A DNA stretch of 64,000 bases from Blastocatellia bacterium (GTDB lineage: Bacteria; Acidobacteriota; Blastocatellia; Chloracidobacteriales; JADJPF01), in the NCBI GenBank assembly GCA_039812885.1, contig JBDIBI010000023.1:19395-83394 (forward strand), in the 5' to 3' direction. The notes under the pieces are model-generated. The model did no database searches, was not told the origin of the DNA, and saw only the letters and a program-made list of their open reading frames with translations. Below, in pieces: positions 8,457-49,124 of this stretch. Position numbers and translations under genes: made by a program. Each line of letters opens with the position of its first letter. Within the stretch, counting starts at the first letter, position 1.

Positions 8457-8630
8457 AGCCACTTTTTAGATCTTAGATTGAAACATTTAATCTAGCGAAT
8501 TTTACAATAAACTCTTCTTTTTCTAAGGAACATTATTGGCAGTTGTGCGACTATAGGTTAAGCGCTAGAAAACTAGTGCATTTATCTAATTTTAAAAGAC
8601 TTCCAAAAGTTCTAAAAATAGGTGGAATTT

Positions 8631-14600: not shown

Positions 14601-14852
14601 CAGCAAAATAATGCTTCTAGATATTGGTGGTGGAGTGGATTTTGGTATCAACATGAAAACTTTAGAGATGAACGAATAGAAGCATTTACTACATTACTTT
14701 TGGATGGTGTTTACTCTTATAGCTATGTAGCAAGAGCTACTACAATAGGGAGCTTTGTTGTTGCTCCTACAAAGGCTGAAGAGATGTATCATCCTGAAAC
14801 TTTTGGTAGAAGCAAGACTGATAAGGTTGTTGTTTATGAGGCAGGAAAATAA
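8631..14852 (+). CDS. alpha-2-macroglobulin family protein, thioester-containing, membrane-anchored (copy B)
   Basis: The ORF track starts at a GTG (8622). The ATG at 8631 is homologous to the copy A start (MRKAGK) and has an AGGTGG RBS. The same YPYECSEQ motif is present (Cys codon 13359-13361). The C-terminal ~715 residues match copy A except for 3 substitutions and the last residues. Confidence 0.85.
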   Translation: MRKAGKSTFAIFALVSMVASIAGVWLYFHPEQVKSLKKAIAKNFTVSKSKKGLQFRLSEGEMEVPTNVPIAKATKLSDSEAEKVLSRLEPLKADEEDKQDFALREKSLPPPKTGEVITTKFPPDQNIKAEEVAKGPLQVLRYSPKDDVPIAPNVSITFSQPMVALSSQEEASKTVPAKISPEVAGHWRWLGTKTLVFEPKDKRLPMSTEYTVEVPAGTKSVIGQSLASAVTWKFRTPTLTLKKYFPTENSVNTNPLIYLEFDQAIDKNLLLNSLSLIGYNENDKNYKLRLATESEIQEEVDKDINFKILLNEAKDKYWLAVKVDNTVLGNIEEPLPKDSNFGVIVNIGASGEGALKTTSKQEFSFKTYSPLRVTWQSCKDYECRPVDYLQFSLNNQLRPNSLDISKATIEPKIPGMTMIVSGTVVTIRGKLKGRITYKLKLEKEFIKDTFGQYLEKTQEINFPISAAKKQLTSIGGELIALDPFAPAKLPVFSTNHNELKVTIYSISAEEWKNFSRIKEEIAQAYNNPTAYQRPVGTLLYSKVITPANKPDEQVETDIDLSAAFQNGRGQAFVFIEPTTQPKNYWEREYIRKWVQYTQIGLDAAVDNEEMLVWANSLKTGKPLAGVEVSLKNSTAVTGADGLAHLKLENAAPKDVPVLIAKSGNDTAILPQSSYGYYSTTWAKANTSDTLSWYVVDDRKTYKPGEKVTIKGWVRVSENKKGGDIKLAGQIKTVSYTLNDSQGNKISTGTLQVNPLGGFNGELALPGTMNLGNAYLTLEALPKAYENQTYSHTFQVQEFRRPEFEVSTKADSNAYLIGEYANVTVSANYYAGGTLNNADVNWQVSSSPTTYTPPNRSEYIFGKWTPWWGSFDYEGYSRRGRYSSYTTSEDSEYNSERFAGKTSPTGTHNLRIDFDAVNPITPSSINVQASVSDVNRQTWTSTSTLLVHPSSLYVGLKSEKTFVGQNEPFILKSIVCDIDGKLIPNTSINFKLVRLDYEYDSQGRYKSKEVDPQTQTITSKDDAVEVRFVPKEGGSYKLTATVVDQKGRKNQTELTLWVTGGKVLPSRDLTQEKIQLIPDKKEYAVGQTAQIMLQAPFYPAEGLLTLRRLGIVKTERFTVDSATYTIKVPIEESYLPNVELHVDLVGESERNPDSSSPGSQLLKRPAFAVGQLNLSIPPVSRSLTVEATPREKAIEPAGETTIDLKLTDASKRAVANAEVALFVVDEAILALSNYQMSNPLSVFYASRPASVSDHHLRSSVVLANPEDIEAQEELARNKEAGKPKPIPSADKLAEMDDVLGGVEGGVAGGAMNRVAAAPAAEPPMAPMEAKKAERADVANAVPARSLKASKPPASNSPIKVRENFNALAVFEAALSTDSNGHAEVKVKLPDSLTKYRIMAIAVAGENRFGSGESSITARMPLMVRPSAPRFLNFGDKFEFPVVVQNQTNKPMSVDVAMRATNATLTEGLGRRVDVPANERVEVRFPVSAEMAGKARFQVGVVSGKWSDAAQVSLPVWTPATTEAFATYGTFESNAIIQPVKAPADTYKQFGGLEVSTSSTQLQELTDAVLYIVSYPYECSEQISSRILAIAALKDVLSAFKAKGLPSEEEINARVAKDLDKLKNMQGYDGGFGFWRPNDTNPFVTIHVAHALQRAKLKGYNIPQDMLDRVHEYLRNIESHINGYSPETTMSVIAYSLYVRNLMGDKDVAKAKSILNSVSLDKTPMETIGWLWPVFTGDSSSTKELEAIRKFVNNRATETAATAHFVTNYAESNYLLLASNFRTDAILLDALIGDQPNSDLIPKLVRGLLDHRTAGRWESTQENAYVLLALDRYFRTYEKVTPNFIARVWLGDNYAGEHSFVGRTTEKYQVNIPMSYLTNSEQNLVISKDGAGRIYYRAAMNYAPKSLDLPAADYGFVVERKYEAVDNPSDVTKTSDGTWRIKAGARVRVKLSMVAQSMRYHVALVDPLAAGLEALNPALANTGAVPPENNLSQQNNASRYWWWSGFWYQHENFRDERIEAFTTLLLDGVYSYSYVARATTIGSFVVAPTKAEEMYHPETFGRSKTDKVVVYEAGK

Positions 14853-20920: not shown

Positions 20921-21116
20921 AATGGTTTGCCCTCTTAAGATTTTTAGGAGTTTCCCAAAGTACGGGGGGGAGTGCGATTATACACACAATCGCCTAATAT
21001 AAGATAGGCCAAAGTTTATGGCAAGTCGCTAAGGCTATGTTCTAAGATAAATTTTGTATTTGTTAATATAACCTAGATAGTCATATTTACGTTATTTATC
21101 TTGCTATTTTGTTTAC

Positions 21117-21224
21117 ATATTAATAACCCCAGGTTACGCTCGTTTATTAATAACCCCAGGTTGCGCTCGTTTATTAATAACCCTAGGTTACGCTCGTTTA
21201 TTAATAACCCCAGGTTGCGCTCGT
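21117..21224 (+). repeat. 4 tandem 27-bp units, consensus TTATTAATAACCCCAGGTTRCGCTCGT (left-arm-only half hairpins)
   Basis: The CCCC cores sit at 21127, 21154, 21181 and 21208, read directly from the sequence. Confidence 0.95.
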
Positions 21225-21245
21225 TACACTCGCTAAAACCTGGGG
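21208..21245 (+). repeat. conserved hairpin, variant 1
   Basis: CCCCAGGTT (21208-21216) pairs with AACCTGGGG (21237-21245). The loop is GCGCTCGTTACACTCGCTAA, followed by CTAATATGGGTTGAGCG. Confidence 0.9.
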
Positions 21246-21313
21246 CTAATATGGGTTGAGCGAATTATAATTTGAACTAATTTAATAAATGAGTTTGTTT
21301 CCAACAGAGTCAT

Positions 21314-21422
21314 TTATTAGTAACTCCCAGGTTGCGCTCGTTTATTAATAACCCCAGGTTACGCTCGTTTATTAATAACCCCAGGTTGCGCTCGTTTATT
21401 AATAACCCCAGGTTGCGCTCGT
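21314..21422 (+). repeat. second block of 4 tandem 27-bp units (first unit 28 bp)
   Basis: Cores sit at 21325, 21352, 21379 and 21406. With the following hairpin and spacer this forms a ~198-bp higher-order repeat of 21117-21313. Confidence 0.95.
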
Positions 21423-21443
21423 TACACTCGCTAAAACCTGGGG
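21406..21443 (+). repeat. conserved hairpin, variant 1 (second copy)
   Basis: CCCCAGGTT (21406-21414) pairs with AACCTGGGG (21435-21443). The sequence is identical to 21208-21245. Confidence 0.9.
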
Positions 21444-21519
21444 CTAATATGGGTTGAGCGAATTATAATTTGAACTAATTCAAATAATTAGATTCGTTTC
21501 CAACAGAGTCATATATTAG

Positions 21520-21645
21520 CCCGGGGTTTTAGCGAAGCGCAACCCCGGGTTCAAGGGGTTTTAGCGAAGCGCAACCCCGGGTTCAAGGGGTTTTAGCGAA
21601 GCGCAACCCTGGGTTCAAGGGGTTTTAGCAAAGCGCAACCCTGGG
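21520..21645 (-). repeat. 4 tandem 32-bp hairpin units (GGGGTTTTAGCGAAGCGCAACCCCGGGTTCAA), family hairpin variant 2 in inverted orientation
   Basis: GGGG starts at 21523, 21555, 21587 and 21619. The first unit pairs CCCGGGGTT (21520-21528) with AACCCCGGG (21541-21549). On the minus strand it continues CTAATATATGAC like the canonical element. Confidence 0.9.
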
Positions 21646-21663
21646 AATGGAGTGCAAGGAAAA

Positions 21664-30408: not shown

Positions 30409-30753
30409 CTATTTCCAATCATCTTGGGCTTTTGTCCAAACAAATTCGCTTACTGCCTCTATATCTTCAATTTCTAGACTATCTTTATATGAAGGCATAA
30501 CACCTTTGCCTCCTTTAACAATTTTCTTTATATGTGTAGAACTTACATAACCATTCTTTTTAAGATCAGCCAATTTTAATGTTTTAGATGGTTCAATAGT
30601 GTTATCTCCTCCTTTATGGCAATTTACACATTGACTTTGAAATACTTTATTGCCTTTTTTTAGCTGAGCTTCTTTATCATCAATATGACCACTAGTTTCA
30701 GATAAACAGATAAACAGAATTAGAAAAGAAAAAAATATGGCTTTTTGCATCAT
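30409..30753 (-). CDS. class I c-type cytochrome (c6/c553-like), secreted
   Basis: CVNCH motif, GVMPSY and a C-terminal WTKAQDDWK. It is a paralogue of 27738-28109. Confidence 0.75.
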   Translation of the reverse strand: MMQKAIFFSFLILFICLSETSGHIDDKEAQLKKGNKVFQSQCVNCHKGGDNTIEPSKTLKLADLKKNGYVSSTHIKKIVKGGKGVMPSYKDSLEIEDIEAVSEFVWTKAQDDWK

Positions 30754-30814
30754 GCTTTAATTCCCTTTGCATAAAAAATATTTCTAAACCATCTCAAAAG
30801 ATGGAGTTATAAAT

Positions 30815-32230
30815 TTAGTTCAAACTTAATATCCAACTAGAAAGATCTTCATAATCTTTTTCTTTTAAATCTGTAAATGCAGGCATTACATTGTTTAACC
30901 CAAAATCAGAAGGTTTTTTTATTAGATTGATTAGGTCATTATGAGTTCGTTTTGGTTTATTATTTAAGTTATGTAAATTAGGGCCAATTACTCCTTCTCC
31001 AGAATTTCCATGACAACCAGCACATTTTTCAATGTAAATAGCTGGAGATTTTGTTGTTTGGGCTATTGTTTGAGCATTTACAGATTGTGCAACAAAAGGT
31101 TTATGTAAAAATTCTTTAGCTTCTTCTGATTGTTGAGCAAGGCGTTTGCTAACAAGAGGATCATTTTTATCATCTAACTTGGCAATAACCATTAAGCCTA
31201 TAATTGCAAGTAGTAAAAGAGATGCTATAACACTGCAAATAGGCCGTTTAAAGGGATTACGCTCTTGCTTTCTATCAAAAAATGGTAAAACACCAAGCAC
31301 TGTAAAGATAAGACCAGGAATAATCATTGTTGGAAGTAAAACAAGACGACCATTAAAATACTTAAGTAGCTGGAAAAGTGGAAGAAAATACCACTCTGGT
31401 CTAGCTATATAGTTAACATCAGCCGGATTTGCTTGTGGTTCAAGCGAAGCAGGCATATACAAACTTATAGATAGTAGTACGATAAATATTAGTGATGAAA
31501 AAACTGCATTAAGGAAAAATTGTTTGGGGTAAAAAGTTTCAGTTTTTTCTTCTAAATTCTTTGAAGTATATGCTCCAGCAGGTTTTGCATACCAGAAAAG
31601 TAATATATGAACTATTGAAGATATTCCTAAAATTAATGGTAGAACTACTACATGAATAACAAAAAACCTTGAAAGTGTAAGAGTTGAAAGGTTACTTCCC
31701 CCTAAAACAATTCTTTCAATAGTTGAGCCTATAATAGGTATAGTTGACATTATGCTAACACCTACTTTAGTTCCGAAATAAGCTTTTTGATCCCAAGGTA
31801 GCAAATAGCCAGTAAAAGAAAACCCAAGTACTAATAAAAACAATAGGATACCAACTAACCAAAGTAATTCACGTTTCTTTTTATAAGCTCCCCATAGAAA
31901 TGTTTGTAAAAAATGCAAGACTACTAAAATCACCATTGCACTTGAGCCATAATGGTGAATACCTCTTATTATTGCACCACAAAGCACTTCTTTTTGAATA
32001 TAGGCTACACTAGTATGAGCATGATCAGAAGTAGGTACATAATAAAGCAACAATAGAATGCCTGTAAATAACTGTAAAACAAAGACAAACAGTAATGCAC
32101 TTCCAAAAACATAAGAAAACTTAGCACCGCCTGGAATTTCTTCCTCTTGTACTCTAGGTAAAAGGCTTTTTATTCCTGTCCTATCATCTATCCAATTTCC
32201 TGTTGCTACTAAATGACTATGTATAGACAT
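30815..32230 (-). CDS. cytochrome b fused to a subunit-IV-like region and a C-terminal monohaem cytochrome c
   Basis: 471 aa and multi-TM, with conserved His pairs in helices (HHYGSS, VVLHFL, FFVIHV), the PEWYFLPLF motif and a C-terminal CAGCH domain. Confidence 0.8.
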   Translation of the reverse strand: MSIHSHLVATGNWIDDRTGIKSLLPRVQEEEIPGGAKFSYVFGSALLFVFVLQLFTGILLLLYYVPTSDHAHTSVAYIQKEVLCGAIIRGIHHYGSSAMVILVVLHFLQTFLWGAYKKKRELLWLVGILLFLLVLGFSFTGYLLPWDQKAYFGTKVGVSIMSTIPIIGSTIERIVLGGSNLSTLTLSRFFVIHVVVLPLILGISSIVHILLFWYAKPAGAYTSKNLEEKTETFYPKQFFLNAVFSSLIFIVLLSISLYMPASLEPQANPADVNYIARPEWYFLPLFQLLKYFNGRLVLLPTMIIPGLIFTVLGVLPFFDRKQERNPFKRPICSVIASLLLLAIIGLMVIAKLDDKNDPLVSKRLAQQSEEAKEFLHKPFVAQSVNAQTIAQTTKSPAIYIEKCAGCHGNSGEGVIGPNLHNLNNKPKRTHNDLINLIKKPSDFGLNNVMPAFTDLKEKDYEDLSSWILSLN

Positions 32231-32244
32231 AAAAAATCCATAGA

Positions 32245-32766
32245 CTAAGTTAATGGAACCTTTTGTTCAAGGCCATGGGTGAAGGATTCATACTTGATTT
32301 CAAGATTATTGTTATTAACTCGATGGTCTAATGTATCTAGGCTTCTAGGTGTAGGGCCTGATATTTTTGCTCCATCATCTTGCCATTTACTCATATGACA
32401 AAGACAAGCAAAGCAATCTCCTTGACGTGTAACTGTACAGCCTTCATGCGGACAAACAGCAGAATAAACATCTATTTGTTGGCCTTTACGAGCAATCCAA
32501 ACAGCTTGGCAACTGCTAGATTCTTGCCAACCATTTTGCTCAGTAATATTTACTGTAAATTGTGTAAAACCTTCTGGAATTTGCTCTAGTTTACCTATTG
32601 TTTGCCAGGATAAATCTTTTTTACTCTTGCCAAAAAAAGCAGGAAATGTTGCATAAATACCAGATACTACTCCCATTACAAGTCCAATAAAACCTAGAAA
32701 AATAGCTCCAAGTATACCAAGAAAGCTACGTCTTGAATTTTGTGGTTCTGAGTTTGTTGTTGACAT
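32245..32766 (-). CDS. Rieske 2Fe-2S subunit of the cytochrome bc complex
   Basis: Twin-arginine-like SRRSFLG, plus CPHEGC and CLCH cluster-binding boxes. I prefer the ATG at 32766, which has an AAGGAAG RBS. Confidence 0.8.
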   Translation of the reverse strand: MSTTNSEPQNSRRSFLGILGAIFLGFIGLVMGVVSGIYATFPAFFGKSKKDLSWQTIGKLEQIPEGFTQFTVNITEQNGWQESSSCQAVWIARKGQQIDVYSAVCPHEGCTVTRQGDCFACLCHMSKWQDDGAKISGPTPRSLDTLDHRVNNNNLEIKYESFTHGLEQKVPLT

Positions 32767-32839
32767 CTCTTCCTTTTTAATAGCTAGTAGTCGCAACTAC
32801 TAGCTATTATGACATTGTAATCTAGTATAAGATTATAAA

Positions 32840-33157
32840 TTAAGGTTTATCACTAGATGATTCAGCCTCATTATGAATTACAAGAGGTTGAACTTGTTTT
32901 TTCATAAAGGCTAAAACAGAACTTGCTTCATTTTTTGTAAGATGGGCACGAACTCTCATATGTAACATAATTGTTTGCCAGCCTGCACTTGAGCGTTGAG
33001 TTGGTTCTGGCGCTCTGTGACAACGAACACAAACACTTCCATAGATTTTTGCACCATCAGTTTCTTGTTTTTCTGTTTTACCATTTGCTACTTGCCCAAA
33101 AATTAGACTAGCTAGCATGGTAAATAATATAAGAGAAATTTTAAGGTTTTTCTTCAT
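32840..33157 (-). CDS. small secreted monohaem c-type cytochrome
   Basis: Signal peptide and a single CVRCH motif. I prefer the ATG at 33157, which has an AAGGAA RBS. Confidence 0.55.
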   Translation of the reverse strand: MKKNLKISLILFTMLASLIFGQVANGKTEKQETDGAKIYGSVCVRCHRAPEPTQRSSAGWQTIMLHMRVRAHLTKNEASSVLAFMKKQVQPLVIHNEAESSSDKP

Positions 33158-33193
33158 TGTATTATTCCTTATAAGCACTGTATTTTGAATATG

Positions 33194-34654
33194 TTAGAAA
33201 GCATATGCTAGTTGTAAATGGGCTCCATTTGTATAAGGGCCAGCAACAAGCCGTTCACGGGTATATTCCATTTTCCAAACAACTGATGGAGTAAGCCAAT
33301 AATCTAGACCTATTGAATGTTGACGTTCATGAACTCCAGCTTGCTCTTGTGCGCTAAAGCGATATATTGGCTCTAAATTCTTGAGAAATGGTTTATCAAT
33401 ATTCTTAAAAGCATAGGACATTTCAGCATACCACCCAGATCTTCTATCTAAACCAAAAGGAGTTTCTCGTTGTAAATTGATATATTCTCCACGAAAATCT
33501 AAGGATTTCTTTTGATACTCAAAATCTACTCCAGTAGCTCTTAAATTATGTGTGCCGGTCTTGTCCCATTTACCTTTTAGTACTGAGGCTCCAATTCTTA
33601 ATTGACCAATTTTGGAATCATAGGAAAAAGGTCTAATACCAACTCTTGTTATAAGAGTTTTGTTTCCATTGATATCTGGGAAATTATCTGCTGTGCCAGC
33701 TCCAATTTCATCAGATTCATAAGACTGTCCATTTGAAATAGCTATAGAGTAATCAAGCACTTGTCCTCGATCACCAAAAGGAATAGCGCTTCTTACCTGT
33801 AATCCAACATCGGAGAAATTAAGTAAGCCTCCTTCATCTCCTTCACGTAGCGGTAAAGGATTGCTTACAAGCTTGTTAATCCAAGGCATATGACGATGCT
33901 CAACAAAATCTCCAAATGGAGTTAAATACTTGCCAAAAATTACAGTAGCATATTTATGAGCAATCCAATCAATTTGAGCTGTTTCAAGGTTAGTTTCTAC
34001 AGTACTTTGACCAGTTACATCATCGCGTGAGAGTTTAATTTCTAATTCACCCTCAAAAAGAAGATTAGGACGTATTCCAAAGAGGAATATAGGGTTAAAT
34101 GAAGCTAAAAAGCTGTTGCCTTGAGGACTTGCGTCATAACGACCTGTACCATAACCGCCAAATATAAAATTATGAGTTCCATGTGGTAATTCAGATTGAA
34201 GAGCTGTTTCAATGTTTTTAGTTCGTTCAGCTAGACTATCAATTTCTCGTCTAGTTTCTTCTCTTTCTGAAGATTTGTTAGGTGCTATAGTAGTAGTGAC
34301 TACAGTGTTATTAGCAGCATTTTCAACAGGTTGTGATGCTTTAACTTCTGTTGGTTGTGCTGTTAAAGCAGTTTTTTCAGTAAGTAGTTTTTCCATCTGC
34401 TTTACTTTTTCATCTAGGTATTTTAGCTTGTTAACTTGATCTTCTAACTCAGACACTCTTTTTTTAAGAATTTCAACTGTTTCTGCATCACTGTTTTTAG
34501 CAGGTTTATCTGATGTTGTTGGGTCAGAATAAGCTACTTTTTCTACAATTTTTTTATTAACAATAGGAGTCAGATTTTGACCGTAAGTCGTTTTTATTGT
34601 TAGTACAAAAAATAAAACTATACTAACAAATATGATGAATTTGTTTTTAGACAT
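33194..34654 (-). CDS. outer-membrane porin-like beta-barrel protein with an N-terminal coiled coil
   Basis: Signal peptide, a coiled-coil stretch (VSELEDQVNKLKYLDEKVKQMEKLL), alternating beta-strand patterns and a C-terminal aromatic ending LQLAYAF. Confidence 0.45.
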   Translation of the reverse strand: MSKNKFIIFVSIVLFFVLTIKTTYGQNLTPIVNKKIVEKVAYSDPTTSDKPAKNSDAETVEILKKRVSELEDQVNKLKYLDEKVKQMEKLLTEKTALTAQPTEVKASQPVENAANNTVVTTTIAPNKSSEREETRREIDSLAERTKNIETALQSELPHGTHNFIFGGYGTGRYDASPQGNSFLASFNPIFLFGIRPNLLFEGELEIKLSRDDVTGQSTVETNLETAQIDWIAHKYATVIFGKYLTPFGDFVEHRHMPWINKLVSNPLPLREGDEGGLLNFSDVGLQVRSAIPFGDRGQVLDYSIAISNGQSYESDEIGAGTADNFPDINGNKTLITRVGIRPFSYDSKIGQLRIGASVLKGKWDKTGTHNLRATGVDFEYQKKSLDFRGEYINLQRETPFGLDRRSGWYAEMSYAFKNIDKPFLKNLEPIYRFSAQEQAGVHERQHSIGLDYWLTPSVVWKMEYTRERLVAGPYTNGAHLQLAYAF

Positions 34655-37183: not shown

Positions 37184-37375
37184 GCTTATAAATACCAATT
37201 TTTCTGTGTAGAAATAAAAATTATCTTAACATTCTGCTTGGCTTAAAGATAACTTGAACTTACCCTCATTTTCTATATTTTGAAGCTTTTACCTGCCTCC
37301 TGAATTGACTTAGGTAACTTCCTTTTGCTATGCTCTTTTATCCTCCACACAAATAAAAATTTTCAAGGTATATTT

Positions 37376-38740
37376 ATGGGCAAAAACTTACGTAACACTC
37401 CTAGTAGAGTTGTTGTTATTGGTGGTGGACTTGCTGGAATGACTGCTGCAAAAAGGCTTTTAGATGCTGGTTATGAAGTTAAACTTTATGAAGGTAGACG
37501 GCTACTTGGAGGTAAAGTTTCTGCTTGGCAAGACCAGGATGGGGATTGGATAGAAAGTGGATTACATGTATTTTTTGGAGCTTATGAAGAAATTTATGAG
37601 CTAATGAAAGAACTTAACCTTTATGATCAAATCATTTGGAAAGAACATGTTCTAACTTACACTTTAGATCAAGGTGAACGTTTTGAGTTTCGCACAATAA
37701 ATCTACCTAGTCCTTTTCATTTGCTGCCTGCTGTTTTTCAAAACCAATTTTTTAACTGGTCTGAAAAACTTTCTTTGGCTAAAGCGCTTTATCCAATGCT
37801 ATTTGGCACACCTGAATATTTTTCTAGTCAAGATATAAAAAGCTATAGTGAATGGCATAGAGAATTTGGCATTAGTGATAGAATGCTAAAAAAAATGTTC
37901 CTACCTATGTCCCTAGCACTTAAATTCCTCCCACCAGAAGAACTTTCTGCTAAAATTGTTTTAGATGTATCAGGTACTTTCTTGCGTACTCCTACGGCTT
38001 CAAAAATGGGATTTCTAAATGGCTCACCAGCTGAAAAGCTTACAAAACCATTAGCTGACTATATAACCAAAAAAGGTGGGCAAATTTTTTTAAATTCTCC
38101 TGTAGAACGCTTAGAGTTTGAATCAAACCATATCAAAGCTGCTATATTAAAAACAGGTGAAAAAATTGAGGCTGATTATTATCTATTAGCTTTGCCTATT
38201 CATAAGCTTCAACAGATTCTGCCTAAAGAACTTAGGAAAGATAAATTCTTTGATAATTTATATGAATTTGAAGGTGTTCCTGTAATTACTGTACAACTTT
38301 GGTTTGACCGACAAGTTACTGAAGTAGATAACATTTTATTTTCTCCTGATGGAATAATTCCTGTGTATGCTGACTTAGGCAATACTACGAAAGATTATTC
38401 TTGTAATGGTAAATCTAGAATTGAAGCAGTAGTTGCACCAGCCCGTAAAATATGGGATTGGGATGATAAAAAAATTGTGGATGAAGTAGTTGCTAATATT
38501 AAAAGCTATTTTCCTAAACTTTCAGTTAATGCTAAGATGGTAAAATCTACTATAGTTAGAATCCCTAGGTCTGTTTATTGGCCAAAACCTGGAACTGATA
38601 AGTTCAGGCCAACACAAACAACACCTATTGGAAATCTATTTTTAGCAGGAGGTTACACCCAACAGCGGTTTTATGACAGTATGGAAGGGGCTGTAAGTAG
38701 TGGTAACAAAGCAGCAAAAGCTATTTTAGCAGCTAAATAA
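37376..38740 (+). CDS. plant/cyanobacterial-type carotene desaturase (CrtP/CrtQ, PDS/ZDS family)
   Basis: FAD fingerprint VVVIGGGLAGMTAAK. The segment LGGKVSAWQDQDGDWIESGLHVFFGAYEE closely parallels cyanobacterial PDS (recalled sequence). ATG at 37376. Confidence 0.75.
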   Translation: MGKNLRNTPSRVVVIGGGLAGMTAAKRLLDAGYEVKLYEGRRLLGGKVSAWQDQDGDWIESGLHVFFGAYEEIYELMKELNLYDQIIWKEHVLTYTLDQGERFEFRTINLPSPFHLLPAVFQNQFFNWSEKLSLAKALYPMLFGTPEYFSSQDIKSYSEWHREFGISDRMLKKMFLPMSLALKFLPPEELSAKIVLDVSGTFLRTPTASKMGFLNGSPAEKLTKPLADYITKKGGQIFLNSPVERLEFESNHIKAAILKTGEKIEADYYLLALPIHKLQQILPKELRKDKFFDNLYEFEGVPVITVQLWFDRQVTEVDNILFSPDGIIPVYADLGNTTKDYSCNGKSRIEAVVAPARKIWDWDDKKIVDEVVANIKSYFPKLSVNAKMVKSTIVRIPRSVYWPKPGTDKFRPTQTTPIGNLFLAGGYTQQRFYDSMEGAVSSGNKAAKAILAAK

Positions 38741-38762
38741 TTTTGATTTACAGAATAACAAA

Positions 38763-39647
38763 ATGAGCCAAGATCTCTTTAACAAGGCTAAAGAAGCTTT
38801 TAATCATTGTGAGAAAATCGTTTCTCATCACGCAAAAAGTTTTTATTTTTGTAGTCATTTTTTGCCATTTCAGAAGCGTATTGCAATGTTTGCTATTTAT
38901 GCTTTATGTAGAACTTTAGATGATATTGTAGATGAATGTCCTAAAGAAAATAAGTCTTTAGCTAAAGAAGCTTTAGTTAAATGGCAGGAAAAGATAGAAC
39001 TTTTATATAGCGGAAAGCACCCTAAAGAACCTATTTTAGAGGCAATGAACGCAGTCATTAGTGTTTATCCAGTAGATAAAAAGCCTTTTTTGGATTTGAT
39101 TGCTGGTGTTGAAATGGATTTAGAAGAATGCTCATATAAGACATTTTCTGATTTAAGGCTTTATTGTTATAGAGTAGCTGCTACAGTTGGATTAATGGGT
39201 TCAGAAGTCTTTGGATATAGCAGTAAAGACGCTTTACCCTATGCTGAAAGCCTAGGTATAGCCATGCAACTTACTAATATCTTACGAGATGTTGGTGAGG
39301 ATTTATATTTAGGACGTATTTACTTGCCAACAGAAGACTTAGAAAAATTTAACTATAGCCAAACTGACTTAAGAGCAAAAAGGATAAATGAAAATTTTAT
39401 TGAGTTAATGAAATTTGAAATTGCTCGTGCTAGAAGCTTTTATAAACAAGCAGATGAAGGAATAAAAATGCTTAGTCCTGACAGCCGACTTACAGTTTTA
39501 GCTGCTAGCCGACTTTATGGAGCAATACTAGACCAAATAGAACGCAATTGCTACGATGTTTTTTCACGTCGGGCAAGTCTGAGTTTAAGTGCTAAATTAA
39601 TGTATTTACCTAAGATTTGGTTTATTCGCCAAATGCAATTTGCTTAA
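38763..39647 (+). CDS. crtB: phytoene synthase
   Basis: 294 aa. YALCRTLDDIVDE and NILRDVGEDLYLGRIYLP are the two Asp-rich squalene/phytoene synthase signatures. Confidence 0.85.
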   Translation: MSQDLFNKAKEAFNHCEKIVSHHAKSFYFCSHFLPFQKRIAMFAIYALCRTLDDIVDECPKENKSLAKEALVKWQEKIELLYSGKHPKEPILEAMNAVISVYPVDKKPFLDLIAGVEMDLEECSYKTFSDLRLYCYRVAATVGLMGSEVFGYSSKDALPYAESLGIAMQLTNILRDVGEDLYLGRIYLPTEDLEKFNYSQTDLRAKRINENFIELMKFEIARARSFYKQADEGIKMLSPDSRLTVLAASRLYGAILDQIERNCYDVFSRRASLSLSAKLMYLPKIWFIRQMQFA

Positions 39648-39670
39648 GTTTTTATTCTTGAGAGGATTAA

Positions 39671-40660
39671 ATGTTTAGTATTTCAAATAGCAACGCTTTT
39701 CAATTGTTGGCTCAAAGATGGAGTCCGGTTATTGAGAAAAAATTGCAAGACGAACTACCTAGCTTTGAATACTCTGTTGATCCAATTTGGCAAAAAGCTG
39801 TAACTGCTGCTGTTTTTGATGGTGGTAAAAGAACTAGGCCGTTTTTGACTATTTTGGGCTGGCAAACCTTTGTAAATGAGCCAATTAACCCTCAACATAC
39901 TCTGGAAATTGAAGCTGTCTTAAATATAGCGGTTGCTGTAGAGCTAATTCACTCTAGCTCATTGATTTTTGATGATTTACCTTGTATGGATAATGCTACT
40001 TTAAGACGTGGCAATCAAGCCTTGCATTTAGAAATTGGCGAAGACAAAGCTATTTTAGTTGCTTTAGCACTGCTAATGAAAGGAATTCAGTTAGTAATAC
40101 TGGCTACTAATACCCTTTCTTCAAAACTCATCAGAGATAAAATTTCAATCCAATTACTTGATTGTATTGGTACTAAAGGCTTAATTTGTGGTCAATGGTT
40201 TGACTTATCTAGTAAACAAAGTGTTAGGGATAATCATAATGATAGTAACCTATTAGCCTTACGTAATTTAAAGACTATGCCGCTAATTAGATTTGCTTTG
40301 CTTAGTGGAGCAATTTTAGCTAATGCAACAGAAAATCAACAAAACATATTAGCTAATTTTGCTGAACAAATAGGAGAAGCTTACCAACAACTTGATGACT
40401 TATTAGATTTGACTACAGATTCTAACTTGTTAGGAAAAGACTTAGCTTTAGATAAAAAAAATGACCGTATAAATGATGCTTATGTAAGTTTAGATAGTGC
40501 AATTATGGAAATTGAAAGAAAATTTACTAAAGCACATAGCTTAATAGAAGAAAACTTCCCAAATAATACTAATATAAAACCATTAATAGGCTTTGTAGAC
40601 AGTCTTTATGCTCGCTTTAAAGAAGTGCTAGAAAGCTTTTCTAATACAAAAGTAGACTGA
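39671..40660 (+). CDS. polyprenyl (probably geranylgeranyl) diphosphate synthase
   Basis: First Asp-rich motif LIFDDLPCMDNATLRRG and second motif YQQLDDLLD. Confidence 0.75.
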   Translation: MFSISNSNAFQLLAQRWSPVIEKKLQDELPSFEYSVDPIWQKAVTAAVFDGGKRTRPFLTILGWQTFVNEPINPQHTLEIEAVLNIAVAVELIHSSSLIFDDLPCMDNATLRRGNQALHLEIGEDKAILVALALLMKGIQLVILATNTLSSKLIRDKISIQLLDCIGTKGLICGQWFDLSSKQSVRDNHNDSNLLALRNLKTMPLIRFALLSGAILANATENQQNILANFAEQIGEAYQQLDDLLDLTTDSNLLGKDLALDKKNDRINDAYVSLDSAIMEIERKFTKAHSLIEENFPNNTNIKPLIGFVDSLYARFKEVLESFSNTKVD

Positions 40661-44020: not shown

Positions 44021-45316
44021 ATGAGAAACCATCGCCACAATCTAGAAAACACCTTAGCAGATTGTCTTACAGAGACAGACATTATTGCTGGCGGAACAGT
44101 TGTATTAGGAAAATATGAAGTCATTGGTTTGTTAGGGCAAGGTGGAATGGGACAAGTATACTTAGCTCAAGATTTACAACTTAAGCGTCTAGTAGCAGTA
44201 AAGACCATTTCATTAACAAATAGCTACAATGAAGAGCACTGTGCTCGTTTCTTACGCGAAGCTCAAATGGCATCTTCAATCAACCATCCTAATGTGTTAA
44301 CTGTTTACGAAATTGGCTCACAAGATAATAGACCTTTTTTAGTAATGGAATATGTAGAAGGAAATACTCTTAGAGATTTACTAAAAAATAATCAAATGGA
44401 TTTACCATTAGCTATAAATTTAGCTATCCAATTAGCTCAAGGTTTACAAGCAATACACCAATTAGGCATCATTCATCGTGACCTTAAATTGGATAACTTT
44501 ATTCTACGTAAAGATGGATATTTAAAAATATTAGATTTTGGTTTAGCTAAAAATACTAGTGAAGTACAAAACAACAACAAGTTTGAAACAAGAGTAGGTA
44601 TGGTTTTAGGCACTCCTCGTTATATGTCTCCAGAACAAGCTAGAGGCCGTGAATTAGATGCTCGTTCAGATATTTTCTCTTTTGGAACAGTGCTTTATGA
44701 ACTTTTAACACATCACCTAGCTTTTGATGATGAAGATGATATGCAAGCTGTTTACCAAGTAGTCTTTCATCAACCAGAACCAATGTCTGAAGAAATTCCA
44801 GAAAGATTACGTAAATTAGTAGAAAGAATAATGCAAAAATCCTTAAAAGCTCGCCCAGAATCTATGCAAGAAGTTTTAGATGAACTCTTAGCTATTCGCG
44901 AAGAACTTTCACTAGTAACTAATAAAGTTAAAGTTGATTATTTATTTGCTAGCACTTTTATTGTTCCTGTAAATAGAAAAAGTGAAACAAAACAAGAAGT
45001 AGTTTTTGAAAAAAAAGTTGAAGTGACAATTAGTACTAATGAAAAACTACTGCTCGATTTAGCAAATGGGAATTTATCACAAGATTCATTGCAATCATGG
45101 TCAATGGATTCTCTCATCGCTCCTGTTGGAGTTAGAAATTTTTCTAGCTCCAACAATTTTTCTAGCTCAAAAGGTAATGTTTTAAGTATGGTTTTTCAAG
45201 AACCTTTTAAAAAGTTACAAACTCATTCACTAGTTAATATTAATAACATTGGACAAAATGTTTATCAAAAGAAAAGAAATGTTCCTAAGTTTGCTACTAT
45301 AAGAGGGTATAGCTAG
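44021..45316 (+). CDS. Hanks-type Ser/Thr protein kinase
   Basis: GQGGMGQVY, VAVK, HRDLKLDN, DFGLAK and GTPRYMSPEQ. The C-terminal ~140 aa has no recognisable domain or TM segment. Confidence 0.85.
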   Translation: MRNHRHNLENTLADCLTETDIIAGGTVVLGKYEVIGLLGQGGMGQVYLAQDLQLKRLVAVKTISLTNSYNEEHCARFLREAQMASSINHPNVLTVYEIGSQDNRPFLVMEYVEGNTLRDLLKNNQMDLPLAINLAIQLAQGLQAIHQLGIIHRDLKLDNFILRKDGYLKILDFGLAKNTSEVQNNNKFETRVGMVLGTPRYMSPEQARGRELDARSDIFSFGTVLYELLTHHLAFDDEDDMQAVYQVVFHQPEPMSEEIPERLRKLVERIMQKSLKARPESMQEVLDELLAIREELSLVTNKVKVDYLFASTFIVPVNRKSETKQEVVFEKKVEVTISTNEKLLLDLANGNLSQDSLQSWSMDSLIAPVGVRNFSSSNNFSSSKGNVLSMVFQEPFKKLQTHSLVNINNIGQNVYQKKRNVPKFATIRGYS

Positions 45317-45360: not shown

Positions 45361-46425
45361 TTATTTTTCGGTTAGTCTTGTGTAAGTACGATCGATTGCC
45401 GATTCTGAAGAGCGCTCAAATCCATTAAATTTCTTTGAATATTTTTCTGATAAAGCAGCTTTAACTAATTTTTTAGTTTCTTCTTTACTTTTACCAGCAG
45501 CGATTTGTTCTTTTACCCCAGCTACCATATCAAGCATAAAATCTTTGAGTAAAGTTAATCGTTCTTTACTTTCTTGTACTGCTCCATGTCCAGGAATAAT
45601 ACGAGAAATATTTAGCTTTTCTATTCCAGCTAGAGTTTGCCCCCAATCTTGAGGATAAGCATCTCTCATAAAAGGAATACCTCCAGTAAGCAAGTCGCCA
45701 GTAACTAAAATGCCTTCTTTAGGCAAAAAAACTACAACATCACCAGCCGTATGACCTCGGCCAAAATAAAGTACTTGAACTTCACGATCTCCAGCTTGCA
45801 AAAAGAGACTGCGGTCAAAAGTAAGGTTAGGCAAAGTTATTTGTAAGTTTTCTAAATCAGTTTGTAATACCTTGGTTTCTTTAAGGTCTTTTTCTAGTTC
45901 TTGACGCTTTTCTGCTGTTAAGTCTTTCCCATCCTCAGCTTTTCCAGAAGTTAATTGTTTTTCTATATTTTTTATATCTTCTTCAAACTCTTTTTTTATG
46001 TCTTTTAAACTAGGGATTTCCTTGTCTATAATGTCTTGTCTTGTGTTGACATGAGCAATTATGTCTAAGGCTTCAGGGAAATTAGATGAATAAGTGCTAT
46101 TGCCTTGTACATGATCTGGATGCCAATGAGTATTAATTAAATAGTGAATTGGCTTATTTCCTACAGTAGCTTTGATTAAGCGTGTTGCCTCACGTGCCGC
46201 AGCAGGGGTAAAGTGGGAATCTACAATAGCAACCCTATCTCCTACTATAAAAAAAGCAGAATTAGAGACTGCTTGAATTGGAGAGTTAGGCTTAACTATC
46301 AGTGCCCAAACTTGTGGAGCTACTTCTTGGACTGTAAAAACATTTGACTCAACTCCTTTGTCTTGAGCTTGTGCTACTTGAACTAAAGCTATTAACATAA
46401 TTATCAAAATTAAAAATTTACGCAT
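45361..46425 (-). CDS. secreted MBL-fold metallo-hydrolase with a charged coiled insertion
   Basis: Signal peptide MRKFLILIIMLIALVQVAQA, THWHPDH motif and GHTAGD. I prefer the ATG at 46425, which has an AAAGGA RBS, over the TTG at 46431. Confidence 0.7.
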   Translation of the reverse strand: MRKFLILIIMLIALVQVAQAQDKGVESNVFTVQEVAPQVWALIVKPNSPIQAVSNSAFFIVGDRVAIVDSHFTPAAAREATRLIKATVGNKPIHYLINTHWHPDHVQGNSTYSSNFPEALDIIAHVNTRQDIIDKEIPSLKDIKKEFEEDIKNIEKQLTSGKAEDGKDLTAEKRQELEKDLKETKVLQTDLENLQITLPNLTFDRSLFLQAGDREVQVLYFGRGHTAGDVVVFLPKEGILVTGDLLTGGIPFMRDAYPQDWGQTLAGIEKLNISRIIPGHGAVQESKERLTLLKDFMLDMVAGVKEQIAAGKSKEETKKLVKAALSEKYSKKFNGFERSSESAIDRTYTRLTEK

Positions 46426-46442
46426 TCTCAATCCTTTCGCAA

Positions 46443-46481
46443 CCTGGGGTTGCGCTCGCTAACGCTCGCTAAAACCCCAGG
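46443..46481 (+). repeat. conserved hairpin, variant 3
   Basis: CCTGGGGTT (46443-46451) pairs with AACCCCAGG (46473-46481). The loop is GCGCTCGCTAACGCTCGCTAA, followed by CTAATATATATA. It begins 18 nt from the MBL gene ATG. Confidence 0.9.
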
Positions 46482-46577
46482 CTAATATATATATCCTAAA
46501 ATTTGAGTTTGGCTAAATCCCGAAAACTTAATATTTTATTAGCTAAACTCTTGAATTTAATATGCTTATAATAAGTC

Positions 46578-46900
46578 CAACTCATATTAGCCCAGACTAA
46601 AAAACCTCTTGAGTTAGAAATGCTCTTATTTGTTGAAATAAATCTAATTTAATTAGCTCAACTCATATTAGCCCAGACTAAAAAACCTCTTGAGTTAGAA
46701 ACGCTCTTATTTGTTGAAATAAATCTAATTTAATTAGTTCAACCCATATTAGCCCAGACTAAAAACCTCTTGAGTTAGAAACGCTCTTATTTGTTGAAAT
46801 AAATCTAATTTAATTAGCTCAACTCATATTAGCCCAGACTAAAAAACCTCTTGAGTTAGAAACGCTCTTATTTGTTGAAATGAATCTAATTTAATTAGTT
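46578..46900 (-). repeat. 4 tandem 81-bp units (one is 80 bp), degenerate copies of the hairpin-plus-tail element
   Basis: Unit starts (CAAC[TC]CATATTAGCCC) are at 46578, 46659, 46740, 46820 and 46901. The reverse complement contains GGGCTAATATGRGTTGARCTAATT, shared with locus 1. Confidence 0.95.
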
Positions 46901-46913
46901 CAACCCATATTAG

Positions 46914-46951
46914 CCCCAGGTTTTAGCGAGTGAAACGAGCGCAACCTGGGG
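46914..46951 (-). repeat. conserved hairpin, variant 1, inverted relative to locus 1
   Basis: CCCCAGGTT (46914-46922) pairs with AACCTGGGG (46943-46951). The reverse complement reads CCCCAGGTTGCGCTCGTTTCACTCGCTAAAACCTGGGGCTAATATGGGTTGAACTAATT. Confidence 0.9.
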
Positions 46952-47031
46952 ATTACAAAAAACGAGCGCAACCTGGGGATTACAAAAAACGAGCGCAACC
47001 TGGGGATTACAAAAAACGAGCGCAACCTGGG
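46934..47031 (-). repeat. 4 tandem 27-bp units AACGAGCGCAACCTGGGGATTACAAAA (last unit truncated), half-hairpin arms
   Basis: Units start at 46934, 46961, 46988 and 47015. The reverse-complement core CCCCAGGTTGCGCTCGTT is identical to the locus 1 core, but the 9-nt linker differs. Confidence 0.95.
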
Positions 47032-47036
47032 TCAAA

Positions 47037-49124
47037 TTATTTTTTTCCTTCTAATTCATCTGCTAGTGCTCCGGCATTATATACCTTACGTAGAGCTTCT
47101 AGTATGCCAGCACTATGTACAGCCATTGCTCGTCCTTTGTCCTCTGTATAAATGTAACGAGAAACAAAACGATGAACATTACTATCAAAGTTTACGCCTA
47201 CGATTTCTCCCTTACGGTTAATTACAGGGCTACCAGAATTACCTCCAATTGTGTCTGCTGTGTAGACAAAATCCATTGCTACATTTTGATCAACGGCTGA
47301 TTTATTAGCTGCTAGTTTTGGAGCTAAGTCAAAAGGAGGTTTGTTATCAAAGCTAGCTGCACGATCATAAAGACCTGCAAAAGTTGTTTTATAAGGTACT
47401 AAAGTTGTTCCTAGTTCATACCCTTTTACTACTCCATAACTAAAACGTAAGGTAAAATTAGCATCAGGAGCTATACTGCGACCATAGACGGCAAAACGAG
47501 CTTTAGCTACTTTTTCTCCTGCTGCGGCTCTTTGTCCATCAAAGTTTTCTTTAACAAATTTATCTATTTCTCTAATTATAGGATCTATTTTAAGTGAAGC
47601 TTCAATTAAAGGATCTCCAGACTTTTCTAATGTAGCTAAATCGCCTTCTAATAAAGCTTTTCTATAGTTTACGTCAGACAATTTAGTTTTTGAAATCCAT
47701 TCTTTAGCAACTTCTGCTGGGTTACGGCCGTTTAGAGTGGCTTTAACAAAAGGATCCGCCTTTCCAAGTTCTTCTTGAATTTCTTGTAACCGGTCAGCTA
47801 ACAAAACTTCTTCCATATCTGAATAAATTGGGGCAGGGGAAAGAAGTTGGTATTTTAATGACTCTAAATTTGAATCCCGAAAAGCTGGCAAGCGTTCTGA
47901 ATTAGGCTTTTTAACTTCCACTACATATTGAGCAATAGTAAAAGCTATTCTAGCAAGTTGTGAAGAATTTAAGTTTGAGTAAACTAAGCGTTTATACATT
48001 GGACGTAAGTTTTGGTAAGCTTTAGCCATTTCATCCCAAGCTGAGCCATAAGCTTTTTGTAATTCTGGATTTTCTGCTACACGTTGACGAAGCTCTTTTT
48101 CTTCATTAACTTTTTGTTGCATTAATTTTTCTGTGAGTAAGCCTTCTTGCTGCCCAGTTAAACGCTTTAACCCATTATTTATTCCAGAAATTGTATCTGA
48201 TGCACGACGTTCTGATTCAGTACTTTGCCCAGAGTATTTTACTAGCAAATCTCTTTGACGAGTAGAGCTTTTTAGTTGAATTGCATTAGATACATCTCTT
48301 TGAAACTCAATTTGTGCAAGGGTTCTTAGCCTATCAGTTGATCCAGGATTACCAATAACAAAAATTAATTCATTATCTTCTGGGCCATGACTACTCCAAC
48401 GAAAATAATGTTCAAGCTTAGCAGGCTTACCATTTTCATAGACTCTAACAAATGCAAAATCTAGAGCATAACGAGGATAGGTGAAATTATCATAATCTCC
48501 ACCAAATTCAGCTGCTTGTGCTTCAGGAGCAAATACCATACGTACGTCAGTATATTTTTTGTATTGATAAAGCCAATACTCTCCACCTTCATAAAGTGAA
48601 ATTACTGTAGATTTAAAACCTGTTTTTTCTAAAGATTCTTTTTCAATTTTAGCAACTTCAGCTCGTCTTTTTTCTTCAGCTAGTTTTAAGTCATTTGCTG
48701 TTTGAGTTACAGCACGAATTTGTTCAGTAACATTTTCCATTCCAACAAGCACATTTAGTTCTAAATCTGGACACTTTAGCTCATCAGCATAAGTAGGAGC
48801 ATAAAAACCTGTTTTTAACAAATTACGCTCAGATGTAGAGAGTTTTGCTAGAGTAGAACGTACAATATGGTGATTAGTCAAAGCTAGCCCATCAGCAGAT
48901 ACAAATGAGCCTGAACCATTGTTAAATCGGACTGCTGAAAGCCTTGCATGATCTAACCATTGTTGATCAGGAGAGAAATTATATTTTTCCTTAAGCTGTT
49001 TTAGTGGAGGATTCCCAAAAATCCACATACCTTCATCTGCTTTTACCGCTTTTAATGAAGTAGCAAGAAAACAAAAAAGTAAAACTAAAACAAAAGCTCG
49101 GCTTAAAGTTTTGGTTGTATGCAT
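47037..49124 (-). CDS. S46-family dipeptidyl-peptidase (DPP7/DPP11-like), secreted
   Basis: 695 aa. A signal peptide is followed by ADEGMW. TNHHIV (His) and GGNSGSPVINRKGEIVGVNFD (Ser) are present. Confidence 0.8.
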   Translation of the reverse strand: MHTTKTLSRAFVLVLLFCFLATSLKAVKADEGMWIFGNPPLKQLKEKYNFSPDQQWLDHARLSAVRFNNGSGSFVSADGLALTNHHIVRSTLAKLSTSERNLLKTGFYAPTYADELKCPDLELNVLVGMENVTEQIRAVTQTANDLKLAEEKRRAEVAKIEKESLEKTGFKSTVISLYEGGEYWLYQYKKYTDVRMVFAPEAQAAEFGGDYDNFTYPRYALDFAFVRVYENGKPAKLEHYFRWSSHGPEDNELIFVIGNPGSTDRLRTLAQIEFQRDVSNAIQLKSSTRQRDLLVKYSGQSTESERRASDTISGINNGLKRLTGQQEGLLTEKLMQQKVNEEKELRQRVAENPELQKAYGSAWDEMAKAYQNLRPMYKRLVYSNLNSSQLARIAFTIAQYVVEVKKPNSERLPAFRDSNLESLKYQLLSPAPIYSDMEEVLLADRLQEIQEELGKADPFVKATLNGRNPAEVAKEWISKTKLSDVNYRKALLEGDLATLEKSGDPLIEASLKIDPIIREIDKFVKENFDGQRAAAGEKVAKARFAVYGRSIAPDANFTLRFSYGVVKGYELGTTLVPYKTTFAGLYDRAASFDNKPPFDLAPKLAANKSAVDQNVAMDFVYTADTIGGNSGSPVINRKGEIVGVNFDSNVHRFVSRYIYTEDKGRAMAVHSAGILEALRKVYNAGALADELEGKK

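Follow-up and report, generated by a model that had tools for sequence, protein, structure and literature searches.

A palindromic repeat block between S46 peptidase and MBL-fold hydrolase genes of a Blastocatellia bacterium, probably a REP/BIME-like mosaic of a dispersed hairpin family

Repetitive extragenic palindromes (REPs) have a fully paired basal stem of 7-20 nt (GC-rich at its base), which can be followed by a bulge of 1-3 nt and a second stem of 1-10 nt, and a loop of 2-5 nt (PMC6006769). RAYT-type REPs are extragenic, dispersed and numerous, and a gene for their cognate Y1/HUH transposase, with REPs on its flanks, lies somewhere in the same genome. In REP clusters, single REPs or REP dimers can be repeated in tandem along with the DNA beside them, loop sequences are common to several species, and REPs with a GTGG foot are known in Verrucomicrobia, for example in Opitutus terrae (PMC3733652). 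The class 3 'atypical secondary structures' of TnpA-Y1 occur in Planctomycetes, Acidobacteria and Legionella and have a CnGA foot and the consensus CCGAGCCGCGACCGTAAGGGAGCGGA (GCCGCGACCGTxAGGGAGCG) (PMC6006769). In this study, we analysed 64,000 nucleotides of DNA from a Blastocatellia bacterium (assembly GCA_039812885.1, contig JBDIBI010000023.1, positions 19,395 to 83,394 of the forward strand; hereafter the window). The gap between the genes for an S46 family peptidase and a metallo-beta-lactamase (MBL)-fold hydrolase is occupied by a palindromic repeat block of about 590 bp, at 46438-47031 of the window (locus 2). A second cluster of the same family, in the opposite orientation, lies at 21117-21645 (locus 1), as an earlier note on this DNA, made from the letters alone, had recognised. 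The array at locus 2 is probably a REP/BIME-like mosaic (BIME, bacterial interspersed mosaic element), comparable to the REP/BIME clusters of E. coli; it would be one insertion of a dispersed, non-coding and probably selfish hairpin family in a low-GC, Blastocatellia-like acidobacterium. The GC content of the window is 34.6%, and the closest named homologs of the S46 protein are from Blastocatellia, Pyrinomonadaceae and Acidobacteriota. On this reading, the 590-bp non-coding block is explained as a repeat insertion and not as a regulatory device. It also adds a REP-like family to the Acidobacteriota (class Blastocatellia), where high-copy hairpin repeats have barely been described.

Locus 2 contains two inverted 38-nt hairpins, four 81/80-bp units, a decayed fifth unit and 3.7 perfect 27-mers. 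All parts that the earlier note had listed were recovered at or near the same positions by sequence reading, Tandem Repeats Finder (TRF) and a repeat finder. The segment nearest the MBL gene (46438-46481, plus strand) begins with the partial repeat CGCAACCTGGGG (half-repeat CGCAACC) at 46438, followed by the type c hairpin proper (46443-46481), which reads CCTGGGGTT-GCGCTCGCTAACGCTCGCTAA-AACCCCAGG. Its foot CTAATAT (TTAG on the opposite strand; 46482-46488, plus) abuts it directly. The following stretch, at 46489-46577 on the minus strand, had been described as about 95 bp of degenerate sequence. It is a decayed fifth copy of the module of about 80 nt found in the 81-mers. Its global alignment to the 81-mer gave z 5.6, or 2.7 once the first 15 nt were left out, and the repeat finder gave 74% over 156 nt. 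The four tandem 81/80-bp units (46578-46909, minus) are 98-99% alike, and each is made up of the module of about 80 nt and a collapsed hairpin remnant, TTAG-TCTGGG-CTAA. TRF placed this array at 46578-46916, with 4.2 copies, 96% matches, a score of 629 and spacings of 81, 81 and 80. Next comes the canonical type b hairpin with its TTAG foot (46910-46951; foot 46910-46913, hairpin 46914-46951), which is minus-oriented and reads TTAG-CCCCAGGTT-TTA-GCG-loop-CGC-AACCTGGGG on the plus strand. The half-hairpin 27-mers (46933-47031, plus; AACGAGCGCAACCTGGGG plus linker ATTACAAAA) complete the block in 3.7 copies that are 100% identical (TRF score 198).

Each 27-mer is the foot-distal half of a hairpin with a 9-nt linker. 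The linker is uniform within a locus and differs between loci, TTTTGTAAT at locus 2 and TATTAATAA at locus 1, and this difference, pointed out previously, was borne out. The reading of 81 bp as three times 27 bp did not hold, since the 27-mer and the 81-mer are unrelated in sequence and one of the units is 80 bp. A 16-nt core of the family occurs 12 times in the window, always inside loci 1 and 2, against 0.00 expected from 100 shuffles. The gap between the two co-oriented genes is indeed filled nearly edge to edge, with 5 nt free next to the S46 gene and 15 nt next to the MBL gene (12 nt when the partial repeat from 46438 is counted). The S46 peptidase gene upstream (47037-49124, minus; 695 aa; Pfam Peptidase_S46, E 6e-196) has its stop codon 5 nt from the array. 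The MBL-fold hydrolase gene downstream (45361-46425, minus) encodes an intact, secreted protein of 354 aa (Pfam Lactamase_B, E 6e-19). Its Shine-Dalgarno sequence, AAGGA (46432-46436, minus; read from the sequence), lies 6 nt from the ATG, and the last hairpin ends 6 nt from it, so that the closeness of this hairpin to the ribosome-binding site was confirmed.

We then compared the hairpins with the known REP structure. The repeat unit was defined as an imperfect palindrome of 30-38 nt that comprises a TTAG foot, a basal stem, a bulge and its GCG/CGC helix, and an apical loop. Loci 1 and 2 account for every complete hairpin of the window, namely two type a, one type b, one type c and four type d hairpins. 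With DNA folding parameters, they share a GC-rich basal stem of 9 bp (CCCC... at the base), a 3-nt TAA bulge, a second stem of 3 bp (GCG/CGC) and an apical loop, which is 3 nt in type d and 11-12 nt in the other three types. The stems, the bulge and the type d loop are within the ranges given for REPs. The same stem-bulge-stem-loop was obtained for the four window types and for a Verrucomicrobiota copy described below, with z of -4.2 to -4.7. The type b hairpin folded at -11.2 kcal/mol (z -4.7; covariance-model match 61.7 bits) and the type c hairpin at -13.4 kcal/mol (z -4.2; 57.3 bits). The foot CTAATAT/TTAG (ATATTAG) stands at 0 nt from all five terminal hairpins of the window. The outer stem occurs as CCCCAGG/CCTGGGG, CCTGGGG/CCCCAGG or CCCGGGG/CCCCGGG, and the differences are compensatory, while the inner core GGTTGCGCT...TCGCTAAAACC is invariant. 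In the hairpin alignment, 86.7% of cells were paired and five pairs were altered on both sides. The covariation score was 0.18 against 0.10 in shuffles (0 of 500 reached 0.18), and slid-register controls were far lower. The type c hairpin had been called plus-oriented in the earlier note. Relative to the canonical hairpin, its arms are swapped (CCTGGGG...CCCCAGG), which is a compensatory change and not a simple inversion, and CGCTCGCTAA is duplicated in its apical loop. The 81-mers had no significant fold (z -0.1 to -0.3). They had been taken as decayed copies of hairpin plus tail, and the homology to the tail stood, whereas the hairpin part is reduced to the collapsed remnant.

Loci 1 and 2 are built on the same plan of half-hairpin 27-mers, hairpin, module of about 80 nt and inverted hairpin. 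Locus 1 (21117-21645, plus) consists of a 198-bp block in two copies, each with four 27-mers, a type a hairpin and a tail of about 80 nt, followed by four inverted 32-bp type d hairpins. The amplified segment differs, being the 198-bp block (two copies) and the 32-bp hairpin (four copies) at locus 1 and the module (five copies) at locus 2. The 81-mer is colinear with the tail of locus 1, with a global alignment z of 8.5-8.9 (5.0-5.6 without the shared first 15 nt). The composite points along transcription at locus 2 and against it at locus 1. Both orientations of the hairpin are found in each cluster, c(+) and b(-) at locus 2 and two a(+) and four d(-) at locus 1, separated by the homologous modules of about 80 nt, which is the arrangement of BIMEs. 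The composite plan is a tail-to-tail hairpin (REP) dimer and is REPIN-like (REPINs being such inverted REP pairs). As in the REPINs of Pseudomonas fluorescens (Bertels and Rainey), two inverted hairpins face each other with feet inward, and the ends of locus 2, inverted copies of about 45 nt (hairpin and foot), pair in the global fold. Unlike in REPINs, the spacer of about 80 nt is longer than typical and is itself tandemly amplified.

Like the REPs and BIMEs of Enterobacteria and Pseudomonas, the family is an imperfect palindrome with a GC-rich base, a bulge, a second stem and a tetranucleotide foot at the 5' base, and is extragenic, just past a stop codon, lineage-specific and present in about 10^2 copies per genome. 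We know of no described REP feature that corresponds to the half-hairpin tandem arrays (27-mers). The tandem reiteration with adjacent DNA is like that of REP clusters (PMC3733652). Class 3 TnpA-Y1 structures resemble the present hairpins as a high-copy, REP-like hairpin family with sequence conserved between distant phyla, but membership in that class was rejected, because the sequences in Table S1 (PMC6006769) share neither foot nor core. An 11/12 match of GCGCTCGTTACA to Bacteroidetes subclass 2.6 REPs was judged to be chance for a table of that size. The intergenic mosaics of Neisseria, with units of 50-150 bp alternating with short inverted repeats and often co-transcribed with their flanks, are also similar in form, although there is no sequence relation. 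In the neisserial intergenic mosaic elements (NIMEs), RS units are flanked by dRS3, which are target sites of recombinases or phages; Correia elements carry duplicated target sites. Elements of this kind are well known, while the family appears to be undescribed, set apart by its TTAG foot, long apical loops and homogeneous half-hairpin arrays.

The abundance of the repeat was examined in metagenomes from activated sludge and hot-spring mats, in which the region is present. In seven public runs, the canonical type b hairpin had a summed contig depth of 430-2200, compared with 3-11 in the flanking genes (ratio about 70-210). The depth of the type c hairpin was about 10-20 times that of the flanks, and that of the 81-mer just about 1-3 times. 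At locus 1, the depth was 405-1426 for type a, 250-940 for type d and 183-546 where the tail starts, whereas the flanks had 3-12 (a ratio of about 35-145). Dozens of contigs with differing flanks terminate in the hairpin, and solitary hairpins dominate the depth signal. The hairpin, and less so the module, is a dispersed high-copy repeat with roughly 100-200 genomic copies by this depth ratio, and both loci in the window are intergenic. Since the ratio is roughly constant across habitats, we argue that the copies belong to the source genome. The low depth of the 81-mer indicates that this variant of the unit is local. A second strain haplotype, found in runs X4, X6, X9 and X10, is without 23 nt (47009-47031) at the S46-proximal edge of the 27-mer array, and the SNPs linked to this indel are at 45915 and 47595. 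The loss is not of a whole unit, which suggests remodelling of the junction.

To place the array in its lineage, we looked at relatives. In a sister lineage (Logan contig L052), the S46 protein is 88% identical and the MBL protein is 87% identical over its full length (MBL at L052:9315-10382). The gene order S46-MBL is kept, and the motif GAAAGGATTGA precedes the MBL gene as in the window, while the spacer is 36 nt and holds no array. In about 87 kb of relatives, no copy of the family was found by pattern or by covariance model. The best-supported reading is that the array was gained in the S46-MBL spacer, or at minimum is not conserved there. A eukaryote-like Ser/Thr protein kinase gene (44021-45316, plus) is convergent to the MBL gene, and several such kinases are found near S46 in relatives. 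The surroundings of locus 1 (20921-21663) were compared with the relatives L061 and L062 (84-87% identity), in which the luciferase-like monooxygenase is followed after 60-78 nt by an alanine racemase or glycosyl-transferase-3 family gene and not, as in the window, by the GH63-like gene. These different neighbours indicate that the locus-1 cluster is at a synteny break.

Searches beyond the relatives gave one set of hairpins. Among 185,579 representative genomes, the hairpin core had 49 single matches, all stemless and equal to chance expectation, and the four core matches in viral contigs were likewise stemless and at chance level. In JGI metagenomes, the sole non-chance outside matches were three hairpins on two contigs (L050/L051) of one metagenome, with 62-65% GC. 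Their host was placed in Verrucomicrobiota by a neighbouring PSCyt/PSD1 protein, and an 82%-identical relative is without the hairpin. These hairpins have the same inner core GGTTGCGCT...TCGCTAAAACC, bulge and GCG/CGC helix as those in the window, and the same foot strand and position. They differ in an unrelated basal stem of about 17-20 bp, a GTGG...CCAC double foot and the high GC of the host, and no 27-mer or 81-mer arrays were seen there. A core kept in two phyla with co-varying stems offers a handle for finding the cognate enzyme.

The hairpin with foot and bulge resembles a transposase substrate, and its core is kept across phyla with co-varying stems. From these features and the literature, we infer mobilisation by an enzyme like the REP-associated tyrosine transposases (RAYTs). 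The copies would spread as single-stranded DNA hairpins with the help of an HUH/Y1 (RAYT-like) transposase that acts in trans from a gene elsewhere in the genome, and the tandem expansions of 27, 32, 81 and 198 bp would be local products of slippage during replication or of unequal recombination among the repeats. In the RNA that spans S46 and MBL, the array would be mainly a passive structured spacer that has to be read through; if it stabilised the S46 message or damped MBL expression, this would be a by-product and not a selected function. Several points weigh against the array being a mobile REP/BIME-like mosaic. The mobilising enzyme is a matter of pure inference, and no Y1/RAYT or other transposase gene was found in the 64-kb window (Pfam, 43 ORFs). 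In types a, b and c, the apical loop (11-12 nt) exceeds the 2-5 nt of the REP rule, and the foot is TTAG, whereas REPs and BIMEs have GT[AG]G at 0-2 nt 5' of the hairpin. The copy number is derived from summed metagenome contig depth and not from a count in a finished genome, and the relatives are known from short-read contigs, which break at repeats. Finally, the spacer of the sister lineage (L052:9279-9314) holds AGTTGAGCTAATT, 13 nt identical to the start of the 81-mer/tail module and inverted relative to the genes. This piece could be the remnant of an older element, with loss in the sister rather than gain here, or a coincidence.

Other origins of the array were considered. A miniature inverted-repeat transposable element (MITE) derived from a DDE-type insertion sequence, or an immobile family that spreads by recombination and slippage only, would require no HUH enzyme. 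The inverted ends of about 45 nt that bound locus 2 are consistent with such an origin, as are the lack of a RAYT gene in the window and the clearly local tandem amplification. However, inspection of the sequence found no target-site duplication, or any other flanking direct repeat, at either locus. Moreover, what is repeated is one hairpin of 30-38 nt, whose foot, bulge and inner helix are conserved; this is the type of a Y1 substrate and not a long terminal inverted repeat. The depth signal comes mainly from solitary hairpins with many different flanks, and the inner core, kept across phyla while stems co-vary, points to recognition of the folded hairpin. We therefore regard a MITE or immobile family as unlikely. 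It is much less probable still that the source contig was wrongly joined here or that a repeat in it was over-expanded. Assemblies are prone to errors at tandem repeats, and short contigs cannot confirm the copy numbers of the 81-mers and 27-mers. Nevertheless, Logan contigs from other samples, of several studies, reproduced exactly the flank-hairpin, hairpin-degenerate unit, unit-unit and 27-mer-S46 junctions. The 81-mer depth of about 1.5-3 times the flanks fits several copies, and a direct S46-MBL junction was seen in no run. This independent support for the junctions indicates that locus 2 is real and not a product of assembly. We give least credence to reading the block as a CRISPR-like array, degenerate or orphan, with a 30-nt repeat and a 51-nt spacer per 81 bp. 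A 31-nt segment of each 81-mer matched the Rfam family CRISPR-DR40 at 21.8-28.6 bits (best E 0.034), below the gathering score of 42. The 'spacers' are identical in all units, 51 nt is far beyond normal spacer length (about 30-40 nt), and there is no cas gene in the window; in addition, the 81-bp unit is colinear with the tail of locus 1, which has no such arraying. The identical 'spacers', the lack of cas genes in the window and the sub-threshold score effectively refute it. The segment itself, GTTGAACTAATTAAATTAGATTTATTTCAAC (46713-46743, with an equivalent in each 81-mer), was judged to be a chance likeness of an AT-rich palindromic segment.

The earlier note had placed the array in the intercistronic or leader RNA of the MBL gene. 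On a rival reading, the array would be a selected cis-acting RNA element of an S46-MBL operon that acts on mRNA stability, processing or translational coupling, with the copy number tuning MBL. The array lies entirely within the intercistronic region of co-oriented genes, it leaves the ribosome-binding site of the intact MBL gene free, and REPs in other genomes are known to stabilise the mRNA upstream of them (PMC3733652). A scan found no sigma-70-like promoter inside the array, so that MBL is probably read through from S46, and the array would be transcribed if MBL is expressed. The variation between strains at the edge of the array also speaks for this reading. However, a dedicated role in this RNA is unsupported. 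The sister lineage has an intact, 87%-identical MBL gene with a short spacer. The bulk of the array consists of 81-mers without significant structure, the composite runs against transcription at locus 1, and the hairpin is repeated throughout the genome. These four observations make a selected regulatory role improbable. There were no terminator-like sites in 46200-47300, and nothing in the whole window reached the gathering threshold of an Rfam family; at relaxed E-values, Rfam gave only sub-threshold noise (CRISPR-DR40, RsaB, snoRNA and miRNA). In RNA-seq runs X23 and X24, a few low-depth contigs covered the region, and this coverage is too thin to show read-through. The earlier note had also made the absence of variation and of conservation elsewhere part of what would speak against its proposal. 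Both strain variation and family members elsewhere were found, which fits a mobile repeat and does not demonstrate regulation.

A more specific form of the REP/BIME-like mosaic was also considered. An undescribed, horizontally transferred enzyme that binds hairpins, from a new RAYT-like lineage with a TTAG/GTGG foot, might recognise the invariant inner module (TT / GCG...CGC / TAA bulge / AA), and the 27-mer arrays might be its abortive or one-ended footprints and not the product of plain slippage. The shared module spans the acidobacterium and the verrucomicrobium despite wholly different stems and a 30-point gap in GC, and the 27-mer arrays are perfectly homogeneous, with some four units at both of the independent loci. 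No transposase was found with Pfam among the ORFs adjoining the Verrucomicrobiota hairpins. We hold this proposal only as a doubtful one. If it is true, there would be a new hairpin-enzyme pair common to Acidobacteriota and Verrucomicrobiota, and an identity between the core and 16S rRNA would also deserve a look.

The core AACGAGCGCAACC (GGTTGCGCTCGTT on the other strand), present in the 27-mers (46934-47031 and 21127-21421) and in the Verrucomicrobiota hairpins, has 13 nt identical to the universal 16S f1100/r1100 site. The 16S rRNA primers f1100 and r1100 are YAACGAGCGCAACCC and GGGTTGCGCTCGTTG (PMC10152446). A rough post hoc estimate of the chance of this match is about 1e-3. We discarded an anti-16S function of the core as unlikely, since the strand presented to transcription differs between the two loci. 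Even so, universal 1100 primers or probes could anneal at over 100 places in the genome. The arrays also break short-read assemblies of a widespread activated-sludge organism, and they offer markers for strain typing.

Several other features of the window were observed. A respiratory cluster at 30409-34654 encodes a Rieske protein, a cytochrome b fused to a c-type cytochrome domain, and extra c-type cytochromes. Two adjoining ORFs of this cluster, 32840-33178 (112 aa) and 33194-34654 (486 aa), had no Pfam match. A carotenoid- or squalene-type cluster at 37325-40660 contains an amine-oxidase-like desaturase, an SQS_PSY synthase and a polyprenyl synthase. Two giant bacterial alpha-2-macroglobulin-like genes stand in tandem at 1184-7450 (2088 aa) and 8622-14852 (2076 aa) and are 87% identical overall. 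In the first of them, a tandem repeat of 12 bp lies within the coding sequence at 5099-5157. Along this pair, long blocks of 100% identity are interspersed with diverged ones, a pattern in the sequence which suggests gene conversion.

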